This document shows, one piece after another, positions 447 to 57,381 of a DNA stretch of 64,000 nucleotides. The translations under genes were made by a program, and so were the position numbers. The stretch's first letter is position 1. Every line of letters begins with the position of its first letter. The stretch lies in assembly GCA_034718535.1 (NCBI GenBank), contig JAYEMX010000064.1, positions 4,328 through 68,327 of the forward strand. The letters run 5' to 3'. Source of the DNA: Patescibacteria group bacterium. Its GTDB lineage: Bacteria; Patescibacteriota; Microgenomatia; UBA1400; CG1-02-47-37. The notes beneath the pieces were generated by a model. It saw only the letters and a program-made list of their open reading frames with translations. It searched no databases and was not told where the DNA came from.

Positions 447-469
447 CCTACAGGGTCAGTCCTTGAAGG
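447..469. repeat. REP-2-like palindrome, hybrid variant (cctacagggtcagtccttgaagg), 7 nt 3' of the rpsI stop
   Basis: Outer arms match REP-2 (cctaca...tccttgaagg); centre cagggtcag matches the REP-1 core. Confidence 0.5.
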
Positions 470-4463: not shown

Positions 4464-5201
4464 TCATGTCAATATGACAGGGTCAGACCCTGTCACTGCA
4501 ATGGTGTGTTCAAACATGCCGGCCATTTGACCGTCTTTAGTAACTATAGTCCAATTATCTTTTGGGTCGGTTTTGGTGTCGCTTGAACCTTTCATGTAGA
4601 TAACCTCAATGGCAATAGTCAGGCCCTTTTTTATAATAGGGGTGTTTTCGATTTTTCCCTCAAGAAAACAGGGAATCATGGGTGGTTCGTGAAGAGTCTT
4701 TCCAATACCGTGGCCGGTTAAATTTCTGGATACATTGTAGCCGTTAGATTCAATAGTGCCTTGAATCGCTTTTGAAATATGTCCAATATGATTATTTACT
4801 TTGGCTTGTTTAATAGCCAAATCCAGGGTTTTTTGGCCGATTTCCAGAAATTTTAATTTTTGAGGATAATCAGTCGGATTACCAACAATAAAACTAATAC
4901 ATGAATCTGTATTAAAACCCTTGTAAAGCATACCAATATCAATAGAAACAATATCGCCCAGTTTTAATTTTTTATCATCGGGAATACCGTGAACCAAGCC
5001 TTCATTTAAATTAATACAGGTGGCCCAAGAATAGCCGGGTACCATGGCGAAATTAGGTTTACCACCGGCTTTTTTAATTAAAGTTTGAGCCTTAGCTTCA
5101 ATTTGACTTAATTTAATTCCGGGTTTGGATATTTTTTTTAAGTCTTGTTTTATTTGGTGTAATTTAGCACCACCTTCGGCCATTAAATTGATTTTATTCA
5201 T
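4464..5201 (-). CDS. map: Methionine aminopeptidase type I
   Basis: MAP metal-binding motifs; the last 8 codons (VTGSDPVILT) are encoded by a REP-1 palindrome. Confidence 0.9.
   Translation of the reverse strand: MNKINLMAEGGAKLHQIKQDLKKISKPGIKLSQIEAKAQTLIKKAGGKPNFAMVPGYSWATCINLNEGLVHGIPDDKKLKLGDIVSIDIGMLYKGFNTDSCISFIVGNPTDYPQKLKFLEIGQKTLDLAIKQAKVNNHIGHISKAIQGTIESNGYNVSRNLTGHGIGKTLHEPPMIPCFLEGKIENTPIIKKGLTIAIEVIYMKGSSDTKTDPKDNWTIVTKDGQMAGMFEHTIAVTGSDPVILT
4475..4495. repeat. REP-1 palindrome tgacagggtcagaccctgtca, embedded in the map 3' coding end
   Basis: Perfect 10+1+10 palindrome identical to the copies flanking RAYT-1. Confidence 0.7.
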
Positions 5202-6338: not shown

Positions 6339-6402
6339 TTAAGGTTCGGAATAAAAGGTTACGAACTCGAACTTTTTAAAGTTCGTAACCCTACAGAACC
6401 TT
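6339..6402. repeat. PAL element, composite: outer arms aaggttc/gaacctt enclose a perfect inner palindrome ggttacgaact...agttcgtaacc
   Basis: Fills the secY-adk spacer; ends 6 nt before the adk ATG. Confidence 0.6.
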
Positions 6403-10928: not shown

Positions 10929-10976
10929 GTTAAGGTTCGGAACTAGAACTTCGGAAAGTTCACGAACCTTAGGTTA
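10929..10976. repeat. PAL element, canonical 48-mer gttaaggttcggaactagaacttcggaaagttcacgaaccttaggtta
   Basis: Identical to the copies at 12539 and 13606 (the 13606 copy lacks the 3' ggtta); ends 6 nt from the rplE ATG. Confidence 0.75.
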
Positions 10977-11890: not shown

Positions 11891-11929
11891 GAAGGTTACG
11901 AACTCGAACTTCTCAAAGTTCGTAACCTT
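11891..11929. repeat. PAL element variant B (aaggttacgaact...agttcgtaacctt, 13-bp stem); overlaps the last 11 codons and stop of rpmC
   Basis: Palindrome read directly; the rpmC stop TAA lies inside the gtaacc arm. Confidence 0.65.
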
Positions 11930-12120
11930 GATTTCTCACCCATCAAAGTTTTGATGAGAGCAATTTGATAACGGGTTTTTTTAAGAATTGAGGTGTTTTT
12001 TAAAGTATTGGTTTTTATTTTTAGTTTTTGGTCGATTAAATCTTTTTTAAACTTAAGAAGATCGGTAGTTAATTCTTTGGTAGTTTTAGCTTGAAAAGCT
12101 TTTTTATCTTTTAAATTCAT
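11896..12120 (-). CDS. rpmC: 50S ribosomal protein L29 with a 3' extension ([12 protein letters not shown]) encoded by a PAL repeat
   Basis: L29 family similarity; the tail is colinear with the repeat. Confidence 0.85.
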
Positions 12121-12538: not shown

Positions 12539-12586
12539 GTTAAGGTTCGGAACTAGAACTTCGGAAAGTTCACGAACCTTAGGTTA
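12539..12586. repeat. PAL element, canonical 48-mer; its 3' end supplies the last codons and TAA stop of rpsC and its 5' end lies 8 nt from the rplP ATG
   Basis: Identical 48-mer to the copy at 10929. Confidence 0.75.
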
Positions 12587-13605: not shown

Positions 13606-13648
13606 GTTAAGGTTCGGAACTAGAACTTCGGAAAGTTCACGAACCTTA
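13606..13648. repeat. PAL element, canonical copy, 3 nt from the rplV ATG
   Basis: Identical to the 10929 and 12539 copies over the first 43 nt; lacks the 3' ggtta. Confidence 0.75.
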
Positions 13649-16940: not shown

Positions 16941-16952
16941 ATTTTTAATTAT

Positions 16953-20574: not shown

Positions 20575-20597
20575 CCTACAAGGAGAGTCCTTGTAGG
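20575..20597. repeat. REP-2 palindrome cctacaaggagagtccttgtagg, 10 nt 3' of the rpsG stop, with a partial duplicated arm (ttttgtaggttt)
   Basis: Same 23-mer as the REP-2 copy after the RAYT-2 stop (55548..55574) and related to the other RAYT-2 copies. Confidence 0.7.
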
Positions 20598-20607
20598 TTT
20601 TGTAGGT

Positions 20608-21087
20608 TTACCAGCGGAAGTGGGCAAAGGCTTTGTTGGATTCGGCAACTTTATGAGCTTGGGTTTTTCTGTCAACGGCACCACCTTGATTTTTTATGGC
20701 ATCTGTTAGTTCGGCGGCTAGTTTTTGATAAAAGTGATGATGTTTTGAGTTTGGTCTTTTTCTGGCGGCATCGATAATCCAACGAATGGCTAGTGACTCT
20801 CTTCTGTTTCCCCTAACAGGCACAGGAACTTGATAGGCAGCTCCACCAACTCTTCTGGATCTAACTTCCATAGTTGGTTTAGCATTGTTAATAGCTTGAC
20901 GTAAAGCAATAATTGGGTCTTCTTTTGTTTGTTTTTTGATAAGTTCCAAAGCTTGATAAACGTGTTTTTGAGCAATTGATTTTTTACCACTATACATAAT
21001 TTTATTAATTATTTTAGCTACCAACTTATTATTATAAAGCGGGTCGGGTTTAGTGATACGTTTGTTTACTTTTCCTGTTCTTGGCAT
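20608..21087 (-). CDS. rpsG: 30S ribosomal protein S7
   Basis: S7 family similarity. Confidence 0.92.
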   Translation of the reverse strand: MPRTGKVNKRITKPDPLYNNKLVAKIINKIMYSGKKSIAQKHVYQALELIKKQTKEDPIIALRQAINNAKPTMEVRSRRVGGAAYQVPVPVRGNRRESLAIRWIIDAARKRPNSKHHHFYQKLAAELTDAIKNQGGAVDRKTQAHKVAESNKAFAHFRW

Positions 21088-37287: not shown

Positions 37288-37322
37288 ATGACAGTGACAG
37301 GGTCAGACCCTGTCACTGTCAT
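37288..37322. repeat. REP-1 extended perfect palindrome (35 nt: atgacagtgacagggtc a gaccctgtcactgtcat) upstream of RAYT-1
   Basis: Perfect 17+1+17 inverted repeat. Confidence 0.75.
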
Positions 37323-37334
37323 GTTCCCTGTGAT

Positions 37335-38030
37335 ATGATTATTAGGATGCCATCAAAGAATAGGAATAAAGTTTATAAAGAAAACGGATATTATCATGTT
37401 TATAATCGTGGGGTTGATAAACGAAAAATTTTTATGGATGAACAAGATTATGCTGTTTTTTTGCATTTACTAAAGTATTATCTTTCTCCACCCAGCAAAG
37501 AAGACAAACATCCTTTGTCGGATACTTCTACAGCTGTGATTAGGCCTAGGCCAATTGAAAATTTACATCAAGAGGTTAATTTACTTGCTTATTGTTTGAT
37601 GCCAAACCATTTTCATTTATTGATAAAACAAAAAAGTATTGATGGTATGACAAAACTAATTCATAAACTACTAACTATTTATTCAATGTATTTTAATAGG
37701 CGTCATAAACGTATTGGCCATTTGTTTCAAGGTTGTTATAAGGCAGTTTTAGCTGATAATGACGAGCAGGTTTTGCATCTATCTCGATATATACACCTTA
37801 ATCCAGTTAAGCTGACAGGGTCTGACCCTGTCAGGTGGCCATACTCAAGTTTGGCTTATTATTTAGGGGAGAAAACTGCTAAGTGGGTGAAACCTAAAGA
37901 AATACTTGAGTGTTTTGAAAAGATAGAAAAGAATAAACTAACAAATAAAAACTACAATTCTTATAAAGAATTTGTTTTTGACGATAAAAAAGATTCTAAA
38001 GAAACTGTTGGCAGGTTTTCTATTGATTGA
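37335..38030 (+). mobile_element. RAYT-type HUH tyrosine transposase (IS200/IS605 TnpA-like, Y1). The likely true start is MPSKN at 37347, matching the N-terminus of RAYT-2.
   Basis: YHVYNRG...LMPNHFHLL (HUH)...SRYIHLNPVK (catalytic Tyr); flanked by REP-1 copies and carrying one internally. Confidence 0.8.
37812..37834. repeat. REP-1 palindrome ctgacagggtctgaccctgtcag inside the RAYT-1 CDS, encoding LTGSDPVR
   Basis: Perfect palindrome, in-frame. Confidence 0.7.
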
Positions 38031-38048
38031 CAGGGTCAGACCCTGTCA
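38028..38048. repeat. REP-1 palindrome; its first 3 nt are the RAYT-1 TGA stop
   Basis: tgacagggtcagaccctgtca. Confidence 0.75.
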
Positions 38049-53657: not shown

Positions 53658-54059
53658 TTATTTGCCTCCTTGGCCAACTTTTACTTGAGCAGGGCGTAAA
53701 ACTTTTTCATGGATAGTATAGCCCTTTTTGATAATTTCTATTATTTTGTTTTTTGGTCCTTTGATTAGTTCAACACAATCTGATGTTTTAGGATCAAACT
53801 CTTGATTTAAAACTTTTATTTCCTTAACTCCTTCTAAATCTAAAATTGATTTAAACTGATTGATGGCCAGTTTTAAGCCTTTATCTTTTAAATGTTGATC
53901 AGCTCTTTCAAGGTCATCTAAGACTGAAAGAAGTTTGTCAATTATAGATGAGATAGCAAATTTGACATAATCAGATTTATCTTTTTCTATTCTTTTTTTT
54001 AAGTTTTGATAGTCGGCTAAAGCTCTCTTTAATTGATTTTTAATAGGTGATTTTTTCAT
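53658..54059 (-). CDS. grpE: Nucleotide exchange factor GrpE; start at the internal Met MKKSP
   Basis: GrpE family; position between hrcA and dnaK. Confidence 0.8.
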
Positions 54060-54063
54060 AATA

Positions 54064-54789
54064 TTACCAATTTTTGGATATTTCTGTAACAAGTTCCCCA
54101 AAATATCTGATAGTAGGAATGACAGATGGATAATTTAATCGAGATGGTCCGATAATGCCAAGCGAGCCATTGATGTCTCCGGTTTTAAAGTCGGTAAAAA
54201 CTAATCCCAAAGTTTGGAAAAAATCATTATTAAAATCTTCGCCGATTATTAAATGAATGGTTTCATCTCCGGTAACATGCGAAAATAAGTTACTTAATTT
54301 ACTATATTCGTCGATCATAGAGAGAACTTCGCGAGTAACATCAATATCATAAAATTCAGGATTGTTTAAAATATTGGCATGACCAGCATGAAAAACATCC
54401 CCTTTATTAGTGTATGAAAGAGCCAAGCAATCGGTTTTATCAGCTAAAACTCGAGTAATTTCTTTTAAAAATTTATTAACTTCAAAGCGGTGGTCCCAAA
54501 CTTTTTCTTTAACAGCTACTTCGTCGGCTACAGATAAGTCGTCTTCTTTGAGAAGTTCTCTGACATAATACTTTAAACCCATAGGTGTAGGAGTTCGTCC
54601 GGCTGAGGTATAGGGTTGGTTTAAAAATCCAGATTTGGTTAAAGTTACCATTTCATTTCTAATAGTAGCCGGAGAGATACCAAGATCATATTTTTTTTCA
54701 AGAGTAACACTACCAACCGGTTCGGCGGTTTCAGTATATTCAGTAATAATTGCTTTTAAAATTTGAGCTTGTCTATTTGAAAGTTGCAT
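54064..54789 (-). CDS. hrcA: Heat-inducible transcription repressor HrcA; start at MQLSNRQAQIL. The ORF-track N-terminal extension covers the CIRCE element and a REP.
   Basis: Winged-helix N-terminus; hrcA-grpE-dnaK-dnaJ order. Confidence 0.8.
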   Translation of the reverse strand: MQLSNRQAQILKAIITEYTETAEPVGSVTLEKKYDLGISPATIRNEMVTLTKSGFLNQPYTSAGRTPTPMGLKYYVRELLKEDDLSVADEVAVKEKVWDHRFEVNKFLKEITRVLADKTDCLALSYTNKGDVFHAGHANILNNPEFYDIDVTREVLSMIDEYSKLSNLFSHVTGDETIHLIIGEDFNNDFFQTLGLVFTDFKTGDINGSLGIIGPSRLNYPSVIPTIRYFGELVTEISKNW

Positions 54790-54791
54790 AA

Positions 54792-54818
54792 TTAGCAGAA
54801 GGATAACACGACTGCTAA
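54792..54818. promoter_or_regulatory. CIRCE-like operator TTAGCAG-N13-CTGCTAA, immediately 5' of the hrcA start
   Basis: 27-nt element with perfect 7-nt inverted arms; outer TTAGCA/TGCTAA match the CIRCE consensus. Confidence 0.55.
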
Positions 54819-54847
54819 TTAGTGTCAAGGATTGTTTTGGCAATAAA

Positions 54848-54870
54848 CCTACAAGGAGAGTCCTTGAAGG
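54848..54870. repeat. REP-2 palindrome (cctacaaggagagtccttgaagg) upstream of RAYT-2
   Basis: Imperfect inverted arms around the agag centre. Confidence 0.65.
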
Positions 54871-55048
54871 CTTATACTTGAGGGTGTATACTGAATTTAA
54901 TGCCTTCAAAAAATGCTTTAAAAATCTATAAAGAAGATTCTTATTATCATATTTATAATCGAGGAGTGGCTAAGGCAAATATTTTTAAAGACAAAAAGGA
55001 TTATAAAGTTTTTCTTGATTATTTGAAAATATATTTATCTCCTGTCGA

Positions 55049-55071
55049 CCTACAAGGAGAGTCCTTGAAGG
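55049..55071. repeat. REP-2 copy inside the RAYT-2 CDS (encodes DLQGESLKV)
   Basis: cctacaaggagagtccttgaagg in-frame. Confidence 0.65.
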
Positions 55072-55352
55072 TTTCACCATCAAGAGAATTGAAAAATTAT
55101 TCAGATGAAATTATCTTGGTTGCTTATTGCTTAATGCCAAACCATTTTCACTTATTAATTCATCAAAAAAATAAGGATTCTATTAATTACTTTATGAGAT
55201 CTTTGGCTACAAAATATTCAAGATATTTTAATACTAGATATGATAGGGTTGGCCCATTATTTCAAGGTGTTTATAAAGCTGTTAAGGTTGACAATGAAGA
55301 TCAGTTGGTTTATTTGACTAAATATATTCATCGAAATCCTATTAATATCCTA

Positions 55353-55375
55353 CCTACGAGGAGAGTCCTTGTAGG
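55353..55375. repeat. REP-2 copy inside the RAYT-2 CDS (encodes LPTRRVLVGY), directly after the NPI(N) motif
   Basis: cctacgaggagagtccttgtagg in-frame. Confidence 0.65.
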
Positions 55376-55547
55376 TTATAAATACTCTAGTTATGGAAAT
55401 TACTTGGGATTATTTAAACAGGTCTGGGTAAAGCCAAATATGATTCTTGGATTGTTTTCTGCCTCTAATAAGTTATTTAGTTATAAAAGTTTTGTGGAAG
55501 AATTAGAAGAAGATTATAGTTCTATAAATAAAATTGTTCTTGATTAG

Positions 55548-55574
55548 CACCTACAAGGAGAGTCCTTGTAGGTG
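55548..55574. repeat. REP-2 perfect palindrome cacctacaaggagagtccttgtaggtg, 1 nt after the RAYT-2 TAG stop, followed by a partial arm duplication
   Basis: Read directly. Confidence 0.75.
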
Positions 55575-55587
55575 CTTGTAGGTTGAG

Positions 55588-57381
55588 TTATTTTTGGAGG
55601 ATGGAGAGGAAGGCTTCTTGGGGTAAGTTGACTTTACCGATTTGCTTCATGCGTTTTTTACCTTTTTTCTGTTTAGATAAAAGTTTTTGTCTTCTGGTGG
55701 GGTCACCACCGTAAAGCTTGGCGGTAACATCTTTTCTAAAGGCTTTAATTGTTTCTCTGGCAAGAATTTTACCACCTAAGGCTATTTGGATAGGGGTTTC
55801 AAATTGCTGACGAGGAATTATTTCTTTTAATTTTGAGGCTAGTTTTTTAGCAGTAGATAAAGCTTTTTCTTTGACGATTAAAATTGATAGGGGTTCAATT
55901 GGTTGATGATTAAGAAGAACTTGAAGTTTAACAATTTTTGCCGGTTTAAATTCTAAAAATTCCCAGTCTAGGCTGGCAAAACCAGAAGAAACCGATTTTA
56001 GGGCTCCAAAGAAATTGCTGATTAATTCTTGAAGGGGTAAATTATAGATTAGTTTGACTTGATTGCCAAAAAATTCTTGGTTTTGAAGCTTGGCTCTTTT
56101 ATTTTGACATAAATTCATTACTCCACCTAAGTATTTAGCGGGAACAAATATAACTAATTTGATAAAAGGTTCTTTAGTTTGATTAATTAAAGTGGGGTCT
56201 GGAAAGTTGGTTGGGCTTAAAATAGATATTTCTTGATTATTTTTCCTTAAAATAATTTTATATTTAACCGAAGGACTGGTGATAATTAATTCGAGTAAAA
56301 ATTCTCTTTCTAAACGTTCCTGAATAATATCTGAGTGAAGCAACCCTTGAAAGCCTATTTTGTAACCACTGCCTAAAACAGAAGAGCTGACCGGAATATA
56401 AGAAAGACTTGAATCAGATAAACTTAGTTTTTCTAAAGCCTTGGTTAATTTAATAAAATCTTGAGAATTGATCGGATATAAATCCATAAAAACCATAGGT
56501 TGGGGTTCTATAAATCCGGAAAAGGGTTTTACTTTATTATCGGGTGGATTAATGGTAACAGTGTCACCTACCCTACAAAGGGAAATATCTTTTAATCCGG
56601 TTGCAAGATAACCGACTTCGCCTGAAAAAAGTTCTGTTCCCGGTTTCATTTGAGGTAAAAAATAACCAACTTCTTCCGGGCTAAAGGTGGCTTGGTTGGA
56701 CATTAGCATAAGTTTATCTTGTTTTGAAATTTGGCCGGCAATCAAACGAACATAAGCAATAACACCTTTGTGAGAATGATAAAAAGAGTTAAAAACTAAA
56801 GCTTTAAGGGGTGCTTTGGTGTTAATTTTGGGAGAAGGAAGATGCTCTATTACCACTTTAATTAATTGAAGTACGCCTTGTCCTGTTTTAGCGGAGATCT
56901 GTAATATTTTGTTTTGGGAAAATCCAAAAGTTTTTTTGATTTCTTTTAAAGTTTTTTTGATCTCGGCATTAGGATGGTCAATTTTGTTGATAACCGGAAT
57001 TATTTTTAGGTTGGCTTCAATAGCTTTATTCATATTTGCCATGGTTTGGGCTTGAATGCCTTGGGTGGCATCGACTAAAAGAATGGCTCCCTCACAAGCA
57101 GCCAGGGAGCGAGAAACTTCGTAAGAAAAGTCAACATGGCCGGGGGTATCAATTAAATTTAAAATGTAAGCCTGGTTGTTTAATTGGTACTTCATTCGAA
57201 CCGGAGCCAATTTAATAGTAATTCCCCGCTCTCTTTCAATAGGATTTGAATCTAATAATCGATCTTTTCTATCTTTTGGTTTAACTGTGTTGGTAATTTC
57301 AAGGAATCGATCTGTTAAAGTGGTTTTACCATGATCAATATGACTAATGACACAGAAGTTTCTAATGTTGGGCTTATTCAT
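55588..57381 (-). CDS. lepA: Elongation factor 4 (LepA)
   Basis: IRNFCVISHIDHGKTTL G domain; LepA-specific C-terminal domain. Confidence 0.9.
   Translation of the reverse strand: MNKPNIRNFCVISHIDHGKTTLTDRFLEITNTVKPKDRKDRLLDSNPIERERGITIKLAPVRMKYQLNNQAYILNLIDTPGHVDFSYEVSRSLAACEGAILLVDATQGIQAQTMANMNKAIEANLKIIPVINKIDHPNAEIKKTLKEIKKTFGFSQNKILQISAKTGQGVLQLIKVVIEHLPSPKINTKAPLKALVFNSFYHSHKGVIAYVRLIAGQISKQDKLMLMSNQATFSPEEVGYFLPQMKPGTELFSGEVGYLATGLKDISLCRVGDTVTINPPDNKVKPFSGFIEPQPMVFMDLYPINSQDFIKLTKALEKLSLSDSSLSYIPVSSSVLGSGYKIGFQGLLHSDIIQERLEREFLLELIITSPSVKYKIILRKNNQEISILSPTNFPDPTLINQTKEPFIKLVIFVPAKYLGGVMNLCQNKRAKLQNQEFFGNQVKLIYNLPLQELISNFFGALKSVSSGFASLDWEFLEFKPAKIVKLQVLLNHQPIEPLSILIVKEKALSTAKKLASKLKEIIPRQQFETPIQIALGGKILARETIKAFRKDVTAKLYGGDPTRRQKLLSKQKKGKKRMKQIGKVNLPQEAFLSILQK

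Follow-up and report, generated by a model that had tools for sequence, protein, structure and literature searches.

A RAYT-like transposase gene of Patescibacteria with cognate hairpins at fixed sites inside its own reading frame

RAYT transposases and the repetitive extragenic palindromes (REPs) that accompany them serve as the standard example of a transposase that has been domesticated and coexists with a repeat family of its own. The locus analyzed here lies in a stretch of 64,000 nt (the window) from a Patescibacteria group bacterium (assembly GCA_034718535.1, contig JAYEMX010000064.1, positions 4,328 to 68,327 of the forward strand), in which the gene of a transposase-like protein, RAYT-2, sits between hrcA and lepA in the company of a 23-nt palindrome, REP-2 (CCTACAAGGAGAGTCCTTGTAGG). 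The question it raises is whether gene and palindrome form a domesticated pair of this kind, a mobile insertion sequence (IS), or a transposase-like gene among unrelated host elements. In our view the locus is probably a domesticated REPtron, in which a Y1/HUH nuclease-transposase, inherited vertically and present in one copy, is paired with a cognate 23-nt palindrome that has colonized the enzyme's own gene. The system is REPtron-like in its working and new in its form, with cognate hairpins at fixed in-frame sites of the gene that encodes the enzyme. The comparisons reported below establish the fold and family of the protein, the four-copy architecture and its conservation, the concerted and compensatory change of the hairpins, the constraint on their nucleotides, their insertion in frame in other genes, their low copy number and the fixed position of the gene.

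The REP-2 pattern, searched for with up to three mismatches, occurs in five places in the window, against none expected from shuffled sequences, and the orientation of the loop is identical in all five. Four of the five belong to RAYT-2, one upstream of the gene, two in frame within it and one abutting its stop codon (Table 1), and successive copies are spaced by 201, 304 and 197 nt. These spacings, together with the presence of copies inside an open reading frame (ORF), rule out a CRISPR-like array, and simple terminators are ruled out by the lack of a U-tract after the hairpin. Folds of all the hairpin copies as single-stranded DNA (ssDNA) range from -7.4 to -15.3 kcal/mol (z -2.9 to -8.2). 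A preliminary description of this DNA had given the ORF coordinates correctly, as well as the MPSKN start shared with a paralog, and had described the gene as flanked by REP-2. The flanks are real, but the two in-frame copies had been overlooked; the copy at 54848 is present, although the GTAGG quoted for it was wrong by one base (it reads ...CCTTGAAGG, with one A.A mismatch), and the perfect 27-nt palindrome at 55548-55574 is correct, with pairing that extends further, to 31 nt (55546-55576).

The A.A mismatch of the upstream copy (...TTGAAGG) is identical to that of the first in-frame copy, and a hairpin is present 35 to 55 nt before the ATG in the relatives listed. Within the gene, site 1 is centred on the same codon and in the same phase in most members of the clade, and site 2 lies directly 3' of the catalytic-tyrosine motif YIHRNP, in a reading frame that differs from that of site 1. 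The downstream copy overlaps the last 2 nt of the RAYT-2 stop codon and stands midway between the convergent stops of RAYT-2 and lepA.

Both ORFs are homologous to Y1 transposases, as had been supposed: in a profile search, RAYT-2 matches Pfam family PF01797 (Y1_Tnp) with 44.4 bits and its paralog RAYT-1 with 38.8 bits, above a cutoff of 23. The HUH motif of RAYT-2 is H82-F-H84 and its tyrosine motif Y142-IHRNP, and residues H82, H84, Y142, H144, N146 and P147 are invariant across 30 homologs; an intact ORF and this invariance of the catalytic residues rule out a pseudogene. The AlphaFold2 model of the protein, with a predicted local distance difference test (pLDDT) score of 81.8 and a predicted template modeling score of 0.80, places Y142 within a predicted helix (residues 133-149). 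In a Foldseek comparison with solved structures it agrees best with 4er8_A (E 8.6e-7), in which the E. coli RAYT is in complex with a REP hairpin; the top matches (4er8_A, 2a6o, 2xma and 2f4f) span E-values from 8.6e-7 to 2e-4 at probability 1.00, and the transposases of IS608, ISDra2 and IS200 rank after 4er8_A. A profile search of the PDB by sequence gave no match for RAYT-2 and a single-sequence search only spurious weak ones, so that RAYT-2 is tied to the solved RAYT and TnpA structures by fold comparison alone. By its motifs and its predicted fold, RAYT-2 is a real Y1/HUH RAYT-like transposase. The family is very large, with at least 7,835 matching database proteins, and the named proteins among the best 120 matches to RAYT-2 belong to Patescibacteria or Beckwithbacteria. 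The two internal stretches of lowest confidence in the model, residues 51-60 and 151-160, coincide with the hairpin-encoded peptides (pLDDT 60 for the site-1 peptide and 53 for the site-2 loop) and correspond as well to the family's two loops of hypervariable length. A scan of positions 54000-56500 against Rfam gave no credible RNA family.

DNA alignment of the RAYT-2 orthologs reveals four hairpin copies in each. The same four positions hold lineage-specific hairpins in many related loci (L002, L003, L006, L009, L011, L014/15, L025 and L037, and likewise L039, L041, L043 and L061), and in more distant loci they are held by hairpins such as ACCTACAAGGACGGACCTTGTAGGT, ACCTTCAAGGACAGTCCTTGAAGGT, CCTGCAGGGCCAGGCCCTGCAGG, CCTTTCGGGAGACTCCCGAAAGG and TGACAGGGTCTCGCCCTGTCA. 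A first screen, confined to perfect stems of at least 7 bp, had missed L006 and L013, whose copies were recovered by DNA alignment and looser searches. Hairpins of one locus resemble each other: across 60 non-identical loci, with a match defined as at least 17 of 19 nt and 400 random locus pairs as a control, the upstream and downstream hairpins match within the locus in 46 cases (vs 23 of the 400 random pairs), site 2 and the downstream hairpin in 28 (vs 7 of 400), and the upstream hairpin and site 1 in 23 (vs 11 of 400). Among the 19 loci of the class with at least 55% identity, a cognate site 1 is present in 16, a cognate site 2 in 18 and both in 15; the more distant members mostly have the flanking pair alone, which is the classical REPtron form. 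The four-hairpin plan is thus a property of a large clade, and its hairpins evolve in concert. L003 shows G-C (CCTGC...GCAGG) in place of a stem pair A-T (CCTAC...GTAGG) in three of its four copies, and in L006 the A-T to G-C change is found on the 5' arm of all four. A few arms in these two loci retain the old state, and homogenization of the hairpins seems here to have been caught in progress.

At the internal sites the constraint lies at the level of nucleotides. Both hairpin-peptide motifs are seen in 97 of the best 120 homologs, and in 91 of these the variable dipeptides correspond to one 5-nt loop read in two frames (24.6 +/- 3.9 when shuffled); of the 91 consistent pairs, 68 agree in orientation and the other 23 are flipped. 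There is free variation in the encoded peptides (GES, GRT, GPT, GQS, GQA and others), while base pairing and third positions are kept: among four orthologs, divergence at third codon positions is 0.098 in the 17 hairpin codons vs 0.408 in the rest of the gene, a large difference of about fourfold, although the pairwise counts are non-independent. The phase of site 2 is different in L039, L040 and L043, and that of site 1 in L078 and L097; these phase changes indicate occasional replacement of a hairpin, more than point mutation alone.

Coding imposes its own constraint, for in the frame of site 1 the perfect palindrome (...CCTTGTAGG) reads TTG-TAG, a stop. Three solutions are found. Lineages with a T at this place, the window's included, carry GAAGG at site 1, which yields a lysine and an A.A mismatch; others have GCAGG with a compensating CCTGC; and in yet others GAAGG is matched by a compensating CCTTC in all copies. 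The upstream copy of the window, which is non-coding, shares the T>A change of site 1, whereas the orthologs L002, L003 and L025 have GTAGG upstream. Since this non-coding copy carries a change that the frame of site 1 needs, the comparison suggests that sequence may have passed between hairpin copies.

An explanation that overlaps with the domesticated REPtron, and differs from it solely in what keeps the copies matched, holds that the hairpins in the ORF are selected cis sites: the enzyme would bind hairpins extruded at its own promoter and within its own gene or mRNA and throttle its own synthesis, and matching would come from selection, not copying. We hold this to be a tentative possibility. 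The upstream copy abuts a conserved extended -10-like box: at least 12 lineages have TGTATACT or TATAAT directly after the hairpin and then 5-8 nt to the ATG, which suggests a leaderless mRNA made from an extended -10 promoter, with the hairpin in the spacer or -35 position. This promoter assignment uses the box conserved across loci alone, and not a generic sigma-70 scan, which gave 13 weak matches against 4 expected. The downstream hairpin follows the stop by 0-9 nt, or overlaps it, in most of the loci listed, and the whole is a compact unit of hairpin, extended -10 box, 7 nt, ATG, coding sequence, stop and hairpin. Internal copies at fixed positions and strong conservation at the nucleotide level agree with selected cis sites as well, and so does gene orientation. 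Between about 400 and 59,000 of the window the two RAYT genes are the only long plus-strand ORFs, with some 55 others on the opposite strand. Seven related loci likewise have a RAYT gene that runs opposite to its called neighbors (on both sides, or on the one available side in L014). As the only plus-strand genes in about 58 kb, the RAYTs would face transcription or replication head-on, which makes extrusion plausible. This orientation would make the minus strand co-directional with replication, yet the GC skew of the plus strand is positive, and the two thus disagree on the direction of replication. Against selected cis sites stand the loss of internal copies in some members, loop flips that alter the hairpin presented on a given strand, and the phase changes of site 2, which point to replacement and not to pure tracking by point mutation.

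REP-2 also occurs beyond the gene, at 20575 and as a diverged copy at 447, and had it been found at the RAYT-2 sites alone the pairing put forward in the preliminary description would have failed. Apart from the RAYT loci, the window holds one perfect and one diverged REP-2 and one copy of REP-1, the hairpin of RAYT-1. The hairpin at 20575 adjoins the minus-strand ORF 20608-21087, which by eye we take to be rpsG, and lies upstream of an ORF that is presumably fusA. Both perfect copies are followed by a second 3' arm, GTAGGT-nn-TTGTAGGTT (20598-20608 and 55573-55586); DNA alignment finds a similar arm tail in L006 and two extra arms in L003. This extra arm may show where the mobile unit really ends, or serve as a cleavage or target motif.

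In other genomes the palindrome has landed inside genes. A scan of 185,579 species genomes for the exact REP-2 pattern returned 21 stretches from other metagenome-assembled genomes (MAGs), and the closest species genome has four copies at its RAYT and three exact ones elsewhere. Exact REP-2 lies in frame in YchF, at the same site in three MAGs (L016 3177, L018 7097 and L032 4350) and at a second YchF site, and also in ArgRS (as a tandem pair), a radical-SAM protein and a glycosyltransferase of other MAGs. The three MAGs with the shared YchF site agree in all 23 of 23 nt of the hairpin there, while its flanks have diverged. The LepA of L003 has a lineage-specific insertion of 10 residues, STCKDSPCRP, in its GTPase domain (L003 7700-7770), absent in three orthologs; the 30 nt in question contain the cognate hairpin of the RAYT gene 1.7 kb away. 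As with Rickettsia-type elements and intragenic REPs, the palindrome is thus accommodated in frame in genes of conserved proteins without disrupting them. Some of the MAGs with REP-2, deposited as third-party annotation, are titled 'uncultured Gammaproteobacteria' or 'Pseudomonadales' (L016, L017, L019, L025, L026, L028, L029, L031 and L036). L019, L025 and L026 also carry RAYTs like those of the window; L025 has a RAYT 81% identical to RAYT-2, and over the aligned stretch this locus does not differ from L002, in which the next gene is lepA. These labels look wrong.

The palindromes might instead serve the host in regulation or structure, for instance as bidirectional terminators, mRNA stabilizers or the operator of another protein, and have nothing to do with the activity of the transposase-like protein; the copies in the ORF would then persist since the encoded peptides matter to the protein. 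REPs do act in the 3' untranslated regions of other bacteria (PMC3733652), the dispersed copies of the window lie at or just past the 3' ends of genes (4475, 20575 and, by our reading, 447), and the downstream copy of RAYT-2 lies between two convergent stops. Even so, we judge this improbable. Hairpin sequence follows the RAYT lineage and not the adjoining genes; the peptides vary freely while pairing and third codon positions are kept, and they fall in loops of low model confidence; a hairpin cassette has been newly inserted in the LepA of one lineage; and most copies are without a directly following U-tract.

The second transposase of the window, RAYT-1, bears out the proposal that one genome holds two paralogous Y1 transposases, each with its own hairpin. 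The REP-1 core, TGACAGGGTCAGACCCTGTCA, is found in four places in the window, three of them at the RAYT-1 gene, which thus repeats the layout of RAYT-2 except that it is without a copy at site 1. The fourth forms the last codons of a Map-like gene, whose C-terminus we take to be no longer than usual, and the hairpin there would presumably be a replacement and not an addition. The statement that REP-2 differs completely from REP-1 does not hold, since 12 of 21 aligned bases are identical; eight of the nine differences amount to four stem pairs that have changed on both sides and are still complementary. These compensatory changes fit the notion that the transposase/hairpin pairs have co-evolved. 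A relaxed core, ACARGG-N5-CCYTGT, occurs at 11 sites in the window against 0.33 expected. The diverged hairpin at 447-469 appears to lie just past the 3' end of a minus-strand ribosomal-protein gene, which we take to be rpsI, and, judging by its stems, might have arisen by recombination between the two families or stand between them as an intermediate.

Several independent assemblies have RAYT-2 orthologs of 77-78% identity in the interval from hrcA to lepA-murJ-rpsT (the order hrcA, RAYT, lepA is seen in L003-L008), and those that are 81-82% identical (L002/L025) keep the lepA side only; three of the four ortholog lineages keep hrcA upstream of the RAYT gene. Synteny is kept in three paralog lineages: another has its slot between PPDK and PGI (L009 and L011-13), and in that of L014/15 gatB is downstream and dnaE upstream, the latter in L015, the sole locus that reaches that far. 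Because orthologs share the hrcA/lepA slot and other paralogs have fixed slots of their own, the RAYT-2 gene is old and vertically inherited and not a recent insertion, and its supposed insertion between the hrcA operator and lepA does not stand against relatives that occupy the same slot or keep its lepA side. An active IS200/IS605-type element, recently inserted here and mobile as a unit with the hairpins as its ends, is hardly credible: it would suit the Y1 fold, with IS608, ISDra2 and IS200 TnpA among the structural matches, the same-strand hairpins at both ends, as in IS200/IS605, and the compact unit with a promoter beside the left hairpin, but besides the shared slots of the orthologs and the fixed slots of other paralog lineages there is one gene per hairpin type in the window (the two genes being 49% identical paralogs with different hairpins), no tnpB is present, and the protein has 215 residues with a C-terminal extension against some 130-150 in solved IS200/IS605 TnpA chains.

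The upstream REP-2 had been placed about 30 nt from a candidate operator of hrcA, and the distance is 29 nt. This repeat, TTAGCAGAA-N9-GACTGCTAA (54792-54818), resembles the controlling inverted repeat of chaperone expression (CIRCE), is self-complementary at 7 of 9 arm positions and lies upstream of hrcA; it is overlapped by a promoter-like TTGACA-17-TATCCT on the minus strand (54828-54800). Both lie between the upstream hairpin and hrcA and are conserved in L003 and L006, which counts against the suggestion that an insertion affects heat-shock control; on this evidence we see no reason to think that such control would be disturbed.

REPtrons, several RAYT/REP pairs per genome and their co-evolution have been described before (PMC3733652, PMC6006769, PMC8266576), and so have REPs that overlap the ends of RAYT genes and in-frame intragenic REPs elsewhere (PMC3733652, PMC6006769, PMC8266576, PMC2817692, PMC5581495). 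A cognate REP inside a RAYT ORF, or an account of the present family of Patescibacteria, was not found in the literature searched, whose coverage was incomplete. With the E. coli REPtron (RayT/YafM, or TnpA(REP), with its REPs and bacterial interspersed mosaic elements; 4ER8) the locus shares the Y1/HUH fold, as its best structural match, aligned HUH and Tyr...NP motifs, a single-copy, vertically inherited gene flanked by cognate hairpins, and the co-evolution of enzyme and hairpin (PMC8266576). Both flanks of RAYT-2 belong to one palindrome family, as in 46 of 60 loci at 17 or more of 19 nt, and one gene per REP type, vertical inheritance and a stable position are likewise found. The E. coli gene has REPs in its flanks only and none inside the ORF, where RAYT-2 has two, and the REPs of E. 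coli have imperfect stems with bulges and a GTAG on their 5' side (PMC8266576), whereas the Patescibacteria palindromes are short and perfect.

The Group 3 RAYT systems (those of S. maltophilia and Marinomonas, and the REPINs of Pseudomonas) have short perfect palindromes too, in which loop bases matter for recognition (PMC8266576), and several specific RAYT/REP pairs per genome (PMC3733652, PMC6006769). In those systems REPs are numerous and occur for the most part as inverted doublets (REPINs), whereas the Patescibacteria copies are mostly single and rare; cognate REPs inside the RAYT frame, present in RAYT-2, were not found for Group 3 in the literature searched. IS200/IS605 elements (IS608 and ISDra2 TnpA) share the catalytic fold and have one-strand subterminal hairpins that bracket the gene; they act on single-stranded DNA, a likeness that would extend to RAYT-2 by homology. 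Unlike them, RAYT-2 is not multi-copy or mobile as a unit, is fixed in its syntenic position, is without tnpB, encodes a longer protein and has left and right hairpins of the same sequence. Intragenic REPs and Rickettsia palindromic elements (RPEs) are in-frame palindromes tolerated in housekeeping genes (PMC3733652), as here. The Patescibacteria insert is a single hairpin of some 23-30 nt, encoding 8-10 residues, whereas described intragenic REPs are mostly dimers or groups encoding 20-30 residues, or the longer RPE-1 (PMC3733652), and it differs from both in having an identifiable cognate Y1 enzyme and fixed in-frame sites in that enzyme's own gene.

Several points weigh against a domesticated REPtron. 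Away from RAYT genes, 6 hairpins were counted in 284 kb of related loci, or about 2 per 100 kb, whereas REPs usually number more than 100 per genome (PMC2817692); clearly, no large population of REPs is being kept up by this enzyme. RAYT-2 is 18% identical to E. coli RayT (215 vs 165 residues), and the two RAYTs of the window score 41.4 and 47.3 bits with NF047646, the NCBIfam equivalog model for RAYT, without reaching its cutoff of 80; they are relatives, not equivalogs, of the curated and largely proteobacterial RAYTs. The canonical single-stranded 5' GT[AG]G foot is absent, REP-2 having GTAG within its 3' arm and CTAC at its 5' end, and the equivalent of GTAG is GAAG or GCAG in sister lineages and GTCA in REP-1. 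Internal copies are absent in some members (from site 1 in RAYT-1, and one each in L038 and L045), and because of such members the internal hairpins are not essential. The loop does not face the same way at all four positions, being flipped in L011, L014, L038, L043, L044 and L061, which is awkward for strictly strand- and loop-specific recognition. G.T and A.C mismatches in stems, counted on the sense strand as a possible mark of function as RNA, number 19 and 12, a difference that tells nothing either way. Flanking REPs of described REPtrons are inverted (Nunvar 2010, PMC2817692); with orientation defined solely by the 1-5-nt loop, the flanks of the window are direct, both with loop GAG on the plus strand, as they are in L014/15, and are mutually inverted in L011, L038, L044 and L061. 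We call the system REPtron-like in its working and new in its form because it departs from described REPtrons in equivalog score, 5' GTAG foot, inverted flanks and high copy number.

The window also holds a third repeat family, a nested hairpin of about 40 nt (AAGGTTCGGAACTAGAACTTCGGAAAGTTCACGAACCTT) found at 6355-6393, 10932-10970, 11892-11930, 12542-12580 and 13609-13647, with partial matches near 16941 and 18235. It fills spacers of 20-70 nt between minus-strand genes, which we take to form a ribosomal-protein cluster, and no transposase of its own was seen in the window.

Table 1. Positions of the transposase genes, their hairpins and associated features (window coordinates unless a locus is named)
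Feature	Position	Strand	Remarks
RAYT-2 ORF, 215 aa, starting MPSKN	54900-55547	+	From the ORF list; Y1/HUH transposase-family protein
REP-2, upstream copy (ACCTACAAGGAGAGTCCTTGAAGGCTT)	54847-54873 (23-nt core 54848-54870)	+	One A.A stem mismatch; ssDNA fold -7.4 kcal/mol, z -4.8
REP-2, site 1, in frame, encoding D50-V58 (DLQGESLKV)	55048-55072 (core 55049-55071)	+	A.A mismatch, GAAGG
REP-2, site 2, in frame, encoding L151-G159 (LPTRRVLVG)	55352-55376 (core 55353-55375, aa 152-159, PTRRVLVG)	+	A>G, giving one G.T pair
REP-2, downstream copy	55546-55576, 31 nt (core 55550)	+	Perfect 14-bp stem, 3-nt loop; fold -15.3 kcal/mol, z -8.2
Repeated 3' arm (GTGCTTGTAGGTT) after downstream REP-2	55572-55584	+	Read from sequence; the 20575 copy has a similar tail
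Extended -10-like box (TGTATACT)	54885-54892	+	7 nt before the RAYT-2 ATG; TTGAAG-17-TATACT
Dispersed perfect REP-2 with tail (CCTACAAGGAGAGTCCTTGTAGGTTTTGTAGGTTTA)	20575-20608	+	10 nt past the stop of minus-strand ORF 20608-21087
Diverged copy (CCTACAGGGTCAGTCCTTGAAGG)	447-469	+	Outer stem REP-2-like; inner stem and loop REP-1-like
RAYT-1, 227-aa paralog	37347-38030	+	49% identical to RAYT-2, E 2e-62; PF01797 match
REP-1 upstream of RAYT-1	37288-37322	+	17-bp stem around TGACAGGGTCAGACCCTGTCA
REP-1 in frame in RAYT-1 (LTGSDPVR)	37812-37834	+	Position homologous to site 2
REP-1 downstream of RAYT-1	38028-38048	+	First three bases are the TGA stop codon
REP-1, dispersed, in frame, last codons VTGSDPVILT*	4475-4495		Inside minus-strand Peptidase_M24 (Map-like) gene 4467-5201
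Further exact REP-2 (second YchF site; ArgRS; radical-SAM; glycosyltransferase)	L034 4715; L021 1257; L024 6652; L022 2808

Catalysis on the hairpins, the route of their homogenization and autoregulation are what we infer beyond these observations. By homology with E. coli TnpA(REP) and the TnpA of IS200/IS605, RAYT-2 would bind the palindrome as a folded single-stranded hairpin and cut and rejoin the DNA beside it. The hairpin would be a small mobile cassette of some 23-30 nt, rarely deposited and mostly at the 3' ends of genes, which in gene-dense genomes may also land in frame inside them. Deposition or replacement would be strongly biased toward the enzyme's own neighborhood, and two cassettes would have become fixed in the two permissive, length-variable surface loops of the enzyme, read in two frames. 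The copies may stay matched through enzyme-mediated hairpin replacement, through selection for recognition by a co-evolving enzyme, or through both, and the hairpins in the promoter spacer and the transcribed region could plausibly act as a cis brake on the expression of a potentially genotoxic enzyme. That the in-frame hairpins are functional parts and not passengers, with enzyme, substrate and expression physically coupled, seems to us rather doubtful; a large clade of RAYT-like enzymes in Patescibacteria would then have its recognition site at the promoter and two more in the coding sequence. In its strongest form, if true, both encoded loops would change automatically with the hairpin, and one of them adjoins the helix of the catalytic tyrosine; if the loops aid recognition or regulation of the hairpin, this would provide a built-in route for the co-diversification of enzyme and site. 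As a corollary, the frame of site 1, in which GTAG becomes a TAG stop, would have driven the hairpins as a family to abandon the canonical GTAG. Should the internal copies be no more than passengers that the gene tolerates, the finding is a curiosity within REP biology.

More generally, the locus extends RAYT/REP systems to the very small, gene-dense genomes of Patescibacteria, in a form reduced to a small number of hairpins that lie mostly at the gene of the enzyme itself. The palindrome-encoded inserts of 8-10 residues scattered in essential proteins matter for gene annotation and alignment, and the matched enzyme and hairpin variants of different lineages form a natural series for studies of specificity. 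The matched hairpins inside the reading frame suggest, in turn, a testable mechanism of self-regulation or self-homogenization.

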